A program made the position numbers and the translations under genes. From positions 2,606,385 through 2,638,384 of the forward strand of contig NC_019697.1 in NCBI RefSeq assembly GCF_000317145.1: DNA of 32,000 nucleotides, read 5' to 3'. Numbering within the stretch: position 1 is the stretch's first letter; the number at the start of each line of letters is the position of its first letter. The DNA comes from Chamaesiphon minutus PCC 6605. GTDB lineage: Bacteria; Cyanobacteriota; Cyanobacteriia; Cyanobacteriales; Chamaesiphonaceae. The notes beneath the pieces were generated by a model. It had not been told where the DNA came from. It did no database searches and was given only the letters and a program-made list of their open reading frames with translations. This document shows positions 9,991-30,180 of the stretch, piece after piece.

Positions 9991-12063
9991 ATGCTGCCCC
10001 AACATCGCTGGCAAATAGCACCAAGCAATCGTTCCCAGGCTGCCAAATTAGCTGCGGGAATTACGCTTACAGATGGAGAAGCGACATCGCCATTGCTGGC
10101 GCAGGTATTGATAAATCGCGGGATTGAGACAGTCGAGCAAGCCGAGTTGTTTATCGATCCAGAGACGGCGGTACTACCTTCGCCATTGACGGAATTTCCC
10201 GATTTGGAAATTAGTCTGGATATCTTGGTGGACGCGATCGAAAATAAGTCTAAGATTGCGATTTGTGGGGACTACGATGCGGATGGCATGACTAGTACCG
10301 CCCTACTTTTGCGCGCACTCTCGGCTTTGGGTGCGGATGTAGATTATGCAATTCCCAGTCGGATGTCGGATGGGTATGGGATTAATAAGCGGATTGTGGA
10401 GGAGTTTCATGCTGAAGGGGTGAAACTGATTATCACGGTGGATAATGGCATCTCGGCAGTTGCCGCGATCGCTAGAGCGGTAGAATTGGGCTTACAGGTG
10501 ATTATCACGGATCACCACGATCTACCCCAAGAATTACCGCCAGCACAGGCGATTCTCAATCCGAAACTAATTGCCGAGTCATCGGTTTATCGTGCGATCG
10601 CGGGTGTGGGAGTTGCTTATCTATTGGCTTTAGAATTAGCTCAGCGGCTAGCAAAACCATCTTTAAGCGATGAGCTATTAGAGTTATTTACATTAGGTAC
10701 GATCGCCGATTTAGCACCACTGACAGGAATCAATCGGCGGTTGGTCAAACAGGGTTTACAACTATTGCCAAAGTCGCAAGTTGTTGGCATTCAAGCCTTA
10801 ATTGAAATGTCTGGAACTCAAGGGGGCACGACGGCAAAAAGTATGGCGATGAAGCCAGAAGATATCGGGTTTAGATTGGGGCCGAGGATTAATGCGATCG
10901 GGAGAATTGACGATCCGCAGATTATTATTAATTTACTCACTACTGAAGATATGGGTGTCGCTCTTGCTAGGGCGATTCAATGCGAACAAGTTAATAAACA
11001 ACGCCAAGATATGTGCGCGCGGATCGAACAAGAAGCGATCGATCTGATTGCAACTGGCAATTATAATCTCAAACAAAATCGCGTGCTGGTTATCGTCCAT
11101 CCTGGCTGGCATCACGGCGTCATTGGCATCGTCGCCTCGCGATTAGTCGAACGCTATGGCGTTCCGGTATTTATTGGAACCAATGAGGACGAGCATCCGC
11201 TTGGTGAAACGCACGCTGTAGGCGTTGGCGAAGCCTCTCCGAAGGAGATACGAAGCGAGACGTGTCGCCAGACGGAAACCTCAGCGCGATTTCATCCGCA
11301 CATTCGCGGTTCGGCGCGCAGCATTCCAGAGTTTAATGTGTTTAACGCTCTAGAATACTGTCACGATCTGTTGGGTAAATACGGCGGACATCGCGCAGCA
11401 GGGGGCTTTTCGATGCCAACTGAGAATCTAGAGAAATTTCAACATAGATTGAGCGAATTTGCCCATAAATGCTTAGAAATCGAACATCTCAAGCATTTAG
11501 TCAAAATTGATGCCGAGGCCGATCTAGCAGCCATTAACATGTCGCTGTACGAACAGATCGACGCGATTCATCCCTGTGGAATGGAGAATCCCGATCCGGT
11601 ATTTTGGACGGCAAATGTCCGCGTCATCGAGCAAAAAATTGTCGGCAAAGGACATCTCAAATTTACCGTCAATACGCCAGAATTTCCCCAGGGAATTAAA
11701 GCGATCGCGTGGCGATTTGGCGATTATTTTCCATTACCGCGCTATTTAGATATTGCTTACAAACTCAAAGAAAATAACTGGAAAGATTCACGCGCGATCG
11801 AGTTAGAAATTGTCAGCGTGCGCTTACCAGTTGCCAGTAAAACTTATCAGTTTAATTATCAAGAGCGAGATTATAATTGCAGTATGTCTCCTGACAAAGA
11901 GCGACTGACGATTGTCAATGCTCAAGGCCAAGCTTTAGTAATAAATAAGGGTCACAAGGTTGCGGAGTTAATTGGGGCGCAGGAAATTAAGTCGATCGAT
12001 ATTACTAAGCCTTATTATTTTAAATTGATTAAAACTGCAATGCAAGTATTGCAAATTAATTAA
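9991..12063 (+). CDS. recJ: Single-stranded-DNA-specific exonuclease RecJ
   Basis: 690-aa ORF. DHH-family motifs ICGDYDADGMTS, ITVDNG, IITDHH and DHHA1 motifs IRGSARSI and GGHRAAGGFSM. Confidence 0.9.
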   Translation: MLPQHRWQIAPSNRSQAAKLAAGITLTDGEATSPLLAQVLINRGIETVEQAELFIDPETAVLPSPLTEFPDLEISLDILVDAIENKSKIAICGDYDADGMTSTALLLRALSALGADVDYAIPSRMSDGYGINKRIVEEFHAEGVKLIITVDNGISAVAAIARAVELGLQVIITDHHDLPQELPPAQAILNPKLIAESSVYRAIAGVGVAYLLALELAQRLAKPSLSDELLELFTLGTIADLAPLTGINRRLVKQGLQLLPKSQVVGIQALIEMSGTQGGTTAKSMAMKPEDIGFRLGPRINAIGRIDDPQIIINLLTTEDMGVALARAIQCEQVNKQRQDMCARIEQEAIDLIATGNYNLKQNRVLVIVHPGWHHGVIGIVASRLVERYGVPVFIGTNEDEHPLGETHAVGVGEASPKEIRSETCRQTETSARFHPHIRGSARSIPEFNVFNALEYCHDLLGKYGGHRAAGGFSMPTENLEKFQHRLSEFAHKCLEIEHLKHLVKIDAEADLAAINMSLYEQIDAIHPCGMENPDPVFWTANVRVIEQKIVGKGHLKFTVNTPEFPQGIKAIAWRFGDYFPLPRYLDIAYKLKENNWKDSRAIELEIVSVRLPVASKTYQFNYQERDYNCSMSPDKERLTIVNAQGQALVINKGHKVAELIGAQEIKSIDITKPYYFKLIKTAMQVLQIN
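11194..11299 (+). mobile_element. MITE-like 99-bp in-frame insertion inside recJ, bounded by the 7-bp direct repeat CATCCGC
   Basis: CATCCGC at 11194-11200 and again at 11293-11299, exactly 99 nt apart. The intervening segment contains the dispersed hairpin core GCGTTGGCGAAGCCTCTCCGAAGGAGATACG (11222-11252). Removing one unit gives ...EDEHPHIRGSARS... Confidence 0.6.
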
Positions 12064-13392: not shown

Positions 13393-13416
13393 CGATCCTC
13401 CACCGGAGCGGCTAAG
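13393..13416 (-). repeat. Copy of the dispersed short-hairpin repeat
   Basis: Reverse complement CTTAGCCGCTCCGGTGGAGGATCG matches ACGTAGCCGCTCCTTGGAGAATCG at 30157-30180. Confidence 0.6.
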
Positions 13417-21852: not shown

Positions 21853-21883
21853 CGATTCTCGTTCCGAGAGGCTTTGCCAACGC
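21853..21883 (-). repeat. Copy of the dispersed short-hairpin repeat
   Basis: Reverse complement GCGTTGGCAAAGCCTCTCGGAACGAGAATCG aligns with 11222-11252 and 30061-30090. Confidence 0.65.
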
Positions 21884-30060: not shown

Positions 30061-30090
30061 CGTTGGCGTAGCCTCTCCAACGGAGAATCG
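30061..30090 (+). repeat. Copy of the dispersed short-hairpin repeat
   Basis: CGTTGGCGTAGCCTCTCCAACGGAGAATCG, with the hairpin TCTCC-AAC-GGAGA. Confidence 0.65.
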
Positions 30091-30156: not shown

Positions 30157-30180
30157 ACGTAGCCGCTCCTTGGAGAATCG
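30157..30180 (+). repeat. Copy of the dispersed short-hairpin repeat
   Basis: ACGTAGCCGCTCCTTGGAGAATCG, in the same orientation as the copy 96 nt upstream. Ends 7 nt from the ureG stop. Confidence 0.6.

Follow-up and report, generated by a model that had tools for sequence, protein, structure and literature searches.

A composite of small dispersed hairpin elements in frame within recJ of Chamaesiphon minutus

In recJ of Chamaesiphon minutus PCC 6605 the heptamer CATCCGC occurs twice, and the question raised by the locus is how the segment between the two copies came to be in the reading frame of this gene. The original prediction, made from a 32,000-nt stretch (the window), was of a miniature element which had transposed into recJ and left a target-site duplication. 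The reading favored here, to which we give a probability of about 0.8, is that the segment is selfish repeated DNA, neither a feature of RecJ nor a miniature inverted-repeat element (MITE) with a duplication. Small dispersed hairpin elements of this sort are a known kind of selfish DNA.

The host gene and the extent of the insert

The protein has DHH (PF01368, residues 88-237), DHHA1 (PF02272, 364-492) and RecJ_OB (PF17768, 506-607) domains, all above cut-offs, its DHH motifs are intact with the invariant motif residues kept, and it matches PDB entries 8y30, 2zxo and 5f54 with E values of 1e-61 to 1e-79. Translation of the 690-aa frame yields the peptide that had been quoted and shows no interruption across the segment. 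An orthologue was found in all 41 of 41 relatives, and the insert proved to be lineage-specific, as anticipated, with an empty site in 19 Chamaesiphon orthologues and six outgroups. The unoccupied site reads ...NEDEH|HIRGSARS, with the DNA GA(A/G)CAT|CACAT, in the 19 Chamaesiphon orthologues, and DEH|HIRGS is also read in the six outgroups; the seamless junction of the empty allele is GAGCATCACATT. These empty sites put the insertion point between codons H402 and H437 and give an insert of 34 codons, not the 33 proposed, with its boundary ambiguous by 1 nt (11197-11298 is equivalent to 11198-11299); nor does deletion of one 99-nt unit restore the ancestral sequence. Insert-bearing proteins make up only seven clusters among 5.8 billion, each a RecJ of Chamaesiphon type, with Chamaesiphon as the genus wherever one is named.

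9991..12063, plus strand: recJ (single-stranded-DNA-specific 5′-3′ exonuclease), 690 aa, host of the insert (Pfam, PDB matches, orthologues)
11198..11299, plus strand: whole in-frame insert, 102 nt, 34 codons, residues 403-436 (empty sites in orthologues)
11194..11200, plus strand: left CATCCGC, consisting of host CATC (11194-11197) followed by the initial CGC of the element (empty versus filled sites)

In an AlphaFold model of RecJ (mean pLDDT 87) residues 401-435 have pLDDT below 50 and fall between strands 393-399 and 437-443, so that the insert is modeled as a disordered surface loop at the turn of a DHHA1 β-hairpin. Alignments to solved RecJ structures are interrupted at 395 and at 434-439, and the same loop varies in length by up to ~40 aa among other cyanobacteria. 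As originally noted, the insert, which lies in this loop, is directly beside the conserved R-G-S-x-R-S motif. It is probably tolerated rather than useful.

Two families of hairpin modules

Three repeat modules make up the insert, a 48-nt hairpin element, a 30-nt loop segment and a 24-nt double mini-hairpin, and because all three lengths are divisible by three and there is no stop in frame, RecJ is predicted from the sequence to gain 34 residues. That the segment is foreign repeated DNA held in frame is supported by the empty orthologous sites and by copies of its modules elsewhere in the genome, but the single 92-bp element proposed does not exist as a unit, the genome search having given no other full-length copy of the 92-bp string.

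11198..11218, plus strand: 5′ arm of family A, CGCTTGGTGAAACGCACGCTG (genome copies; identical in six filled recJ alleles)
11219..11224, plus strand: left part of the 30-nt long-form loop segment, TAGGCG... (same segment in 78-nt copies)
11225..11248, plus strand: family B element, TTGGCGAAGCCTCTCCGAAGGAGA, encoding GEASPKE (264 genome copies)
11249..11273, plus strand: right part of the 30-nt long-form loop segment, TACGAAGCGAGACGTGTCGCCAGAC (same segment in 78-nt copies)
11274..11299, plus strand: 3′ arm of family A, ending in the conserved GATTTCATCCGC and including the right-hand CATCCGC (terminus kept in all copies)
21857..21880, minus strand: family B copy elsewhere in the window (pattern search, 0 mismatches)
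30063..30086, plus strand: family B copy elsewhere in the window (pattern search, 0 mismatches)

Family A is palindromic, with termini (T/C)GCTTGG...CATCCGC (T/CGCTTGGTG...GATTTCATCCGC), and is represented in the genome ~26 times, in 22 cases by a copy of exactly 48 nt (TGCTTGGTG...CATCCGC) and in three by one of 78 nt. Copies are mostly in heptamer arrays (AAAATCC and CCTAAAG), in register and without duplication, and there is also one within a 24-nt shell at C1:2563228. Subfamilies have paired stem changes, CTGAGG/CCTCAG versus CGGAGG/CCTCCG, in which the 5′ and 3′ arms compensate; it is on this covariation that support for the structure is based, since single-sequence folding gave weak z-scores, with the folding energy of single copies not significantly better than that of shuffles (z −0.1 to −1.6). 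A generic repeat search missed the family because its copies differ by nested indels. The 30-nt segment is present in the 78-nt copies at C1:2294174, 2563228 and 4564277 and in a 77-nt copy at 3563256, and its right part has five matches in its own genome, only inside family A hairpins. The recJ copy in this genome is the 78-nt long form of family A, with family B held in its loop segment. As the 30-nt segment is never found alone, the apparent nesting of three insertions could come down to two, long-form A and B.

Family B consists of two mini-hairpins, GGC-GNA-GCC and TCTCN-NNN-N′GAGA, with ends TTGGCG...GAGA. GNA-type triloops closed by C-G pairs are a classic, very stable DNA mini-hairpin motif. 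The variable stem pair 15/19 is C-G in 123, G-C in 40, T-A in 39 and A-T in 15 of the 264 copies, and so is Watson-Crick in 217/264 against ~94 expected by our arithmetic from the pair counts. Flanking the copies are CG (86%) and ATCG (59%), with six paralogous empty sites reading CG^ATCG and one orthologous near match, CGGTCG, being 1 nt off. Open frames of at least 200 aa contain 120/264 copies, and 50 copies are deep inside ORFs of at least 350 aa; of ORFs with such a deep copy, 10/10 tested have Pfam domains and are real proteins, PurL, PurT and Mur ligase among them. Family B is present in every Chamaesiphon genome searched for it (six species), and outside the genus it occurs at 1-8 copies each in 21 genomes belonging to 18 cyanobacterial genera, with 0 matches for a reversed control pattern. 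Of the recJ alleles, only that of this genome has family B. A full-text literature search with the repeat consensus strings returned nothing relevant. The original prediction was right that a dispersed short hairpin repeat has a copy in the segment (11225-11248), but instead of four other places in the window only two are found at up to 3 mismatches (expected number 0.09). The regions surrounding these two are not syntenic in relatives, and the chromosome is without the usable GC skew that a replichore strand-bias test of family B needs.

The modules also account for the paired heptamers. CATCCGC is indeed at 11194-11200 and 11293-11299, 99 nt apart, but the pair follows from where the element landed, after host CATC, and from its own ends, (T/C)GC at the start and always CATCCGC at the finish. 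The right copy is part of the invariant 3′ terminus ...GATTTCATCCGC that every family A copy of the genome has, whatever its flank, and CATCC does not precede the other copies on their left. Judged by orthologous and paralogous empty sites and by the heptamer register, family A duplicates 0-1 nt of its target and family B nothing, and a target-site duplication of CATCCGC is thereby ruled out. Nor does the pair stand out, for the window has 635 identical 7-mer pairs no more than 150 nt apart compared with 282 in shuffles, a heptamer repeat being common by chance. Transposition into recJ of one ~92-bp miniature inverted-repeat element, with duplication of a 7-bp target, has in its favor that the pair is real, that its spacing is a multiple of three and that the insert has imperfect inverted repeats at its ends; yet it would have the unoccupied site read ...GAGCATCCGCACATT..., where empty sites read GAGCAT|CACAT, and the basic unit is 48 nt. 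This model is very unlikely and, going by the orthologous empty sites, is already refuted.

History of the recJ site

Five other filled recJ alleles, from four species genomes, have the same insertion point, in graded states of 48, 78 and 99 nt compared with 102 nt here. The smallest, those of G010 (C. polymorphus) and G013a, have exactly 48 nt added; the 30-nt loop segment is in recJ of G019, G013b and G007 and not in those two, and G007 recJ has in addition a 21-nt module of which further copies exist. The family A arms are identical in all six filled alleles, and between G010 and G013a the element is identical at 48/48 positions while recJ as a whole matches at 80% of positions and at 55% of third codon positions. 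Mere tolerance of junk DNA does not account for arms that are the same across clades, which counts against the reading favored here.

If there had been one ancient insertion, inherited vertically as ordinary coding sequence and occasionally lost, the identical insertion point and the ancestral right flank ATTCGC common to all filled alleles would be expected. Monophyly of the filled alleles is, however, rejected (AU p = 2.2e-43), and the state of the site has changed at least four times within the genus. The interior sequences are discordant with the gene tree, one loop variant being common to G007 and G013b and another present in G019, and 0/48 differences between clades whose recJ differs by 20% overall and 45% at third positions has, by our arithmetic, a chance of ~2e-5, or ~1e-4 for the 16 third positions alone. 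Such a history is extremely unlikely.

Spread of a filled allele among Chamaesiphon species by homologous recombination (natural transformation), that is introgression, would leave a tract of similarity around the insert. To the right, the first 20 nt are identical between this genome and G007, the flank differs from the nearest empty alleles at two of its first nine bases (+6 and +9), and 300 nt group G007, G019 and G013b contrary to the whole-gene tree. To the left, though, the bases 4 and 7 nt away from the junction vary by clade, and a tree of 300 nt places this genome among empty alleles with strong support; in sliding windows the divergence from the other filled clade stays at 16-17% up to the edge of the insert, with no tract of near-identity. 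Flank displays, four partition trees and sliding windows together yielded a weak recombination signal over ~20 nt, on the right only, and introgression is considered unlikely.

The arms invite a further explanation, that the insert, or at least its hairpin arms, was co-opted and is kept by nucleotide-level selection, either as a structure in mRNA or DNA that influences recJ expression or as a peptide loop modulating RecJ by the 5′-phosphate-binding R-G-S-x-R-S. Arms identical in six alleles where flanking synonymous sites are ~45% diverged point that way, as does the abutment of the insert on the invariant R439, G440, S441 and R443. So too does the sharing of the recJ copy by five species genomes, when both of the family A copies tested at other loci (2/2) are missing from the orthologous sites of related species (G010, G022), even sister species. 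Against co-option, 19 congeners lack the insert, among them the species closest to the filled ones, its interior varies freely from 48 to 102 nt, the loop is predicted to be disordered, dozens of unrelated genes, as well as intergenic heptamer arrays, contain the same modules, and an Rfam scan of 10900-11600 gave no family match and just one chance miRNA match. Co-option is judged quite unlikely.

With selfish repeated DNA as the preferred reading, family A, a 48-nt palindrome, lies between H402 and H437 without target-site duplication, its loop carries the 30-nt segment, and within that segment is family B, of a type that inserts precisely at CG^ATCG-like sites. The history of the site would then be either one of repeated insertion or one of in-place replacement by other family copies together with precise excision. 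The modules could be moved in trans by a putative enzyme recognizing folded single-stranded hairpins. A search for the mobilizing enzyme among Y1/RAYT-type genes did not find one: the genome has five PF01797 matches, four of them RAYT-like Y1 transposase genes, which are flanked by other GTAG palindromes (GTAGGGGCGGG, GTAGGGGTGCCCC or GTAGGGTGGGCA) and not by family A or B; a single family A match is anywhere near a RAYT-like gene, 1.6 kb off, and among the Y1/RAYT-type genes examined no transposase gene was seen flanked by family A ends.

It is possible, and is put forward tentatively, that the nucleotide between H402 and H437 is a preferred and reused landing and excision site of a live 48-nt hairpin element whose loop takes up 21-30-nt modules, both processes being seamless. 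If so, this locus, with varied states in a culturable strain and its relatives, would be a natural read-out of the mobility of such micro-elements, and the mechanism could be single-stranded-DNA hairpin transposition by a putative enzyme.

Relation to other small repeats

Beyond correcting a plausible-looking annotation of a MITE with its duplication, the results reveal one 24-nt unit at 264 copies, dozens of them predicted to be translated inside the frames of housekeeping proteins. Because the lengths of the modules are divisible by three and they land without duplication, they are a steady source of small surface-loop peptide insertions. The recJ site is unusual among copies in being occupied in non-sister species, with graded nested states and with arms far better conserved than the surrounding gene, and it provides a concrete locus for insertion, excision and homogenization of such elements.

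MITEs have terminal inverted repeats matching those of a parent IS, target-site duplications and a usual size of 100-400 bp. Nezha of Anabaena and Nostoc and the Correia elements resemble the elements here in being non-autonomous and dispersed, with inverted-repeat ends, and sometimes in genes; unlike MITEs, the elements here lack a duplication, and their unit is below 100-400 bp. No classical TIR/TSD anatomy was seen in them, and no parent IS was found among the Y1/RAYT-type genes examined. Among known kinds of repeat, the closest are Elhai's small dispersed repeats (SDRs), intragenic REPs and the Rickettsia palindromic elements (RPEs).

RPEs (Ogata et al. 2000, as reviewed in PMC10969869) are in-frame palindromes in many unrelated housekeeping genes, giving surface peptides compatible with fold and function. 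The same traits are seen here in the recJ loop, with pLDDT below 50 between two strands, and in the 50 family B copies deep in long ORFs. RPEs are single units of ~100-150 bp in an obligate intracellular alphaproteobacterium, whereas those here, of 24-48 nt, are nested and belong to a free-living cyanobacterium, and the two would not be expected to be related in sequence.

Intragenic REPs, GTAG- or CGTC-tagged palindromes (Di Nocera et al. 2013, PMC3733652), are likewise short palindromic repeats wholly inside ORFs and translated. They are often in replication and repair genes (uvrA/B/D, recBCD, dnaE), and different REPs are at about the same recB site in two Xanthomonas species (PMC3733652); in the text consulted recJ is not among the genes named. 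REPs carry the terminal GTAG/CGTC tag and adjoin cognate RAYT genes; families A and B are without the tag, with only the junction of the 30-nt segment reading CTGTAGG, and are not next to RAYT genes here.

Family B is likened to the SDRs by their description. SDR1-8, from Nostoc punctiforme and relatives, are said to have been described by Elhai et al. in 2008, in Genome Res 18:1484. According to PMC5861425, SDRs are, like the elements here, very small dispersed hairpin repeats, and their size of 21-27 nt fits family B (24 nt, 264 copies) and also the 21-nt module of G007, family A at 48 or 78 nt being larger. The same paper has the hairpins supported by compensatory changes, as in families A and B, and has SDRs nested in each other and in larger small elements, as B is inside long-form A, embedded in tandem heptamer repeats, as family A is, and with no known transposase, as here. 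It also places SDR5 only inside HIP1 (GCGATCGC), and family B lands in CG^ATCG, the HIP1 hexamer core, though not always in the full octamer. In PMC5861425 SDRs are reported as confined to Nostocaceae, a family to which Chamaesiphon does not belong, so that micro-elements of the SDR type, reported there only from Nostoc-type cyanobacteria, are here found to be abundant in Chamaesiphon.

The empty site and the nested insert in recJ

The host gene, recJ, encodes 690 amino acids with DHH, DHHA1 and RecJ_OB domains. Its closest named relatives are from Chamaesiphon (L061, and P0005 of C. polymorphus), and the C. minutus genome, which is 6.76 Mb in three contigs with 45.7% GC and abundant GCGATCGC, also encodes a RecJ paralogue. 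Orthologues were sampled from 40 relatives and then from all 27 genomes of the genus sample. An empty site, ...FIGTNEDEH^HIRGSARS (GA(A/G)CA(T/C)^CA(C/T)AT in DNA), is found in 19 Chamaesiphon orthologues and six outgroups. Because these read DEH^HIRGS, the insert is residues 403-436, and so 102 nt (1 nt ambiguous) rather than the 99 nt of the original prediction, which took it for a MITE-like element with CATCCGC as its 7-bp target-site duplication. The CATCCGC pair is present, with its left copy made of host CATC and CGC of the element, and its right copy being the element's own end; to the right host sequence restarts at ACATT and there is no duplication. Nor does the pair stand out as a repeat, with 635 identical 7-mer pairs at most 150 nt apart in the window against 282 in shuffles. 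The reading as a MITE with a target-site duplication is wrong, although the observation itself is real. In genome-wide BLAST and pattern searches, the insert broke down into three repeat modules.

Features of recJ and its insert (window positions)
9991-12063: recJ open reading frame
11194-11200 and 11293-11299: CATCCGC pair
11198-11299: insert
11198-11218 and 11274-11299: family A, outermost module
11219-11224 and 11249-11273: 30-nt segment, inside family A
11225-11248: family B, inside the 30-nt segment

The 48-nt hairpin of family A, TGCTTGGTG-N-...-GATT(T/G)CATCCGC, has about 26 clean copies in the genome (22 of exactly 48 nt), and its subfamilies are distinguished by paired changes in the stem. 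Most copies lie inside heptamer arrays (AAAATCC, CCTAAAG or similar) whose register continues straight across the element, and so insertion is without duplication. A long form of 78 nt carries 30 nt extra in the loop; elsewhere in the genome it has three copies of 78 nt and one of 77 nt, and the same searches found no occurrence there of the 30-nt segment by itself. In contrast to the recJ copy, two further family A copies of this genome have no counterpart at the orthologous sites of G010 (C. polymorphus) and its congener G022. One of the two belongs to a second 102-nt composite, at C1:2563228-2563304 with flanks (L003), in which a 24-nt shell, CCGCAAAGCGGACGC^TACGCGATC, is interrupted by the 78-nt form of family A; it is missing in its entirety from the orthologous sites L217 (G022) and L218 (G010). 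Family A copies at C1:1662488, 4564277, 3271073 and 6114937 are embedded in other GGAGG-NNN-CCTCC hairpin repeats, e.g. ...CTCGGAGGTTCCCTCCGAG..., and micro-palindromes nested in one another form a whole set in this genome.

The 24-nt unit of family B, TTGGC-GNA-GCC-TCTCN-NNN-N'GAGA, occurs 264 times in the genome. Its variable stem pair is Watson-Crick in 217 copies, with all four pair types, where our arithmetic from the pair counts gives about 94 under independence. The first loop is G-N-A closed by C-G in 211/264, which is the very stable d(GCGNAGC) DNA mini-hairpin motif. CG flanks 86% of copies and ATCG 59%; six paralogous empty sites show the precise sequence CG^ATCG, others differ by one or two changes, and one orthologous pair (G016 filled, G004 empty) also fits. 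From these flanks and empty sites, insertion is in the core of the HIP1 octamer and without duplication. The repeats at window 13393-13416 and 30157-30180, originally counted as copies of the insert's hairpin, fall outside the family B pattern even with three mismatches allowed, and may be diverged copies or members of another family.

Tolerance in RecJ and other proteins

AlphaFold modelling with 52 RecJ sequences as input gave a mean pLDDT of 87; residues 401-435, lying between strands 393-399 and 437-443, fall below 50 and are devoid of secondary structure. When aligned to RecJ proteins of solved structure, the sequence shows breaks at 395 and 434-439, where the solved proteins have a turn of 4-5 residues. 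The length of this beta-hairpin turn varies across other cyanobacteria, with up to about 40 extra residues in a Microcoleaceae MAG; unrelated additions of 10-40 aa occur there in L090:1501-3606 (that MAG; acidic, about 40 aa), L087 and L075.

Family B is depleted in long open frames yet frequent in them, as 120/264 copies lie within frames of at least 200 aa compared with 71% of random positions. Fifty are deep within ORFs of at least 350 aa, and all ten ORFs tested are real proteins, including PurL, PurT, a Mur ligase, an SNF2 helicase and a CHASE2 kinase. The recJ peptide VGEASPKEI belongs to a recurring set (VGEASLKEN, VGVASPSGN and similar). Outside the window, the ORF for a PurL-type FGAM synthase (C1:774456-778445, L207; 1330 aa) contains, besides an intein splicing domain (PF14890), a copy of family B inserted in frame as VGEASLKEN.

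History of the recJ site

Inserts in filled recJ alleles
C. polymorphus (G010): 48 nt
G013a: 48 nt
G019: 78 nt
G013b: 78 nt
G007: 99 nt (78 plus a 21-nt module with other copies)
C. minutus: 102 nt

Insert-bearing RecJ forms only seven clusters among 5.8 billion proteins, all Chamaesiphon-type (the named ones being Chamaesiphon). In a recJ tree computed without the insert columns, C. minutus and G010 are sisters nested among empty G008, G018 and G022, and G013a/b, G007 and G019 are in a separate clade with empty G009 and G001. Forcing the filled alleles to be monophyletic costs 313 log-likelihood units (AU p = 2.2e-43), and at least four state changes are needed. G010 and G013a share an identical 48-nt element, yet their recJ genes agree at 80% of all positions and 55% of third codon positions, and the loop variants are discordant with the gene tree. 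On this tree, identity and loop evidence, vertical inheritance of an inert insert is rejected.

Repeated seamless insertion at a preferred recJ site has a probability of roughly 40%. Just as probable is an older copy that other members of its family keep uniform through conversion, combined with precise excisions; short-tract exchange between species is about half as likely as either. Partition trees and sliding windows revealed no conversion tract around the insert: in the left 300 nt C. minutus still groups with empty alleles, and it differs by 16-17% from the other filled clade up to the junction. Only the right-hand side, over about 20 nt, hints at a tract, all filled alleles retaining ancestral ATTCGC there. 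Whether by repeated insertion or otherwise, the site is unusually dynamic and informative.

The extra 21 nt in G007, ATCTTCTATACGTCTTCGCCTA (L032), has further copies at G007:C207:11954-11975 and G010:C339:42698-42719 with one mismatch each, and is a fourth small module. The Chamaesiphon MAG G013 has two recJ alleles, L034 (C699) and L141 (C279), with flanks 96% identical, one with a 48-nt and one with a 78-nt insert; either strains are mixed in it or the 30-nt segment has turned over very recently.

Distribution, movement and known relatives

Searches for family A and for family B were positive in each Chamaesiphon genome that they covered, also in species whose recJ site is empty. With a strict 30-mer for family B, C. 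minutus gives 109 matches and G011 gives 18; in the phylum sample, 21 genomes from 18 other genera hold 1-8 each, and a reversed control pattern has zero matches. The seamless insertion, defined ends and GNA mini-hairpins suggest that both families would be moved by a hairpin-recognising, single-strand-based process. No mobilising enzyme for them was identified in the C. minutus genome, where the RAYT-like Y1 genes were examined.

RAYT-like Y1 genes (PF01797) with GTAG-tagged palindromes on the flanks of each
C1:2978935-2979456
C1:141676-142194
C1:3366815-3367405
C1:6142792-6143409

Their palindromes (GTAGGGGCGGG..., GTAGGGGTGCCCC..., GTAGGGTGGGCAnTGCCCACC) are separate REP families of this genome.

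The recJ insert belongs to an already known type of element. The Chamaesiphon families behave like Elhai's small dispersed repeats, which are reported as restricted to Nostocaceae (PMC5861425), like the intragenic REPs often seen in repair genes (PMC3733652), and like the palindromic elements (RPEs) of Rickettsia (PMC10969869).
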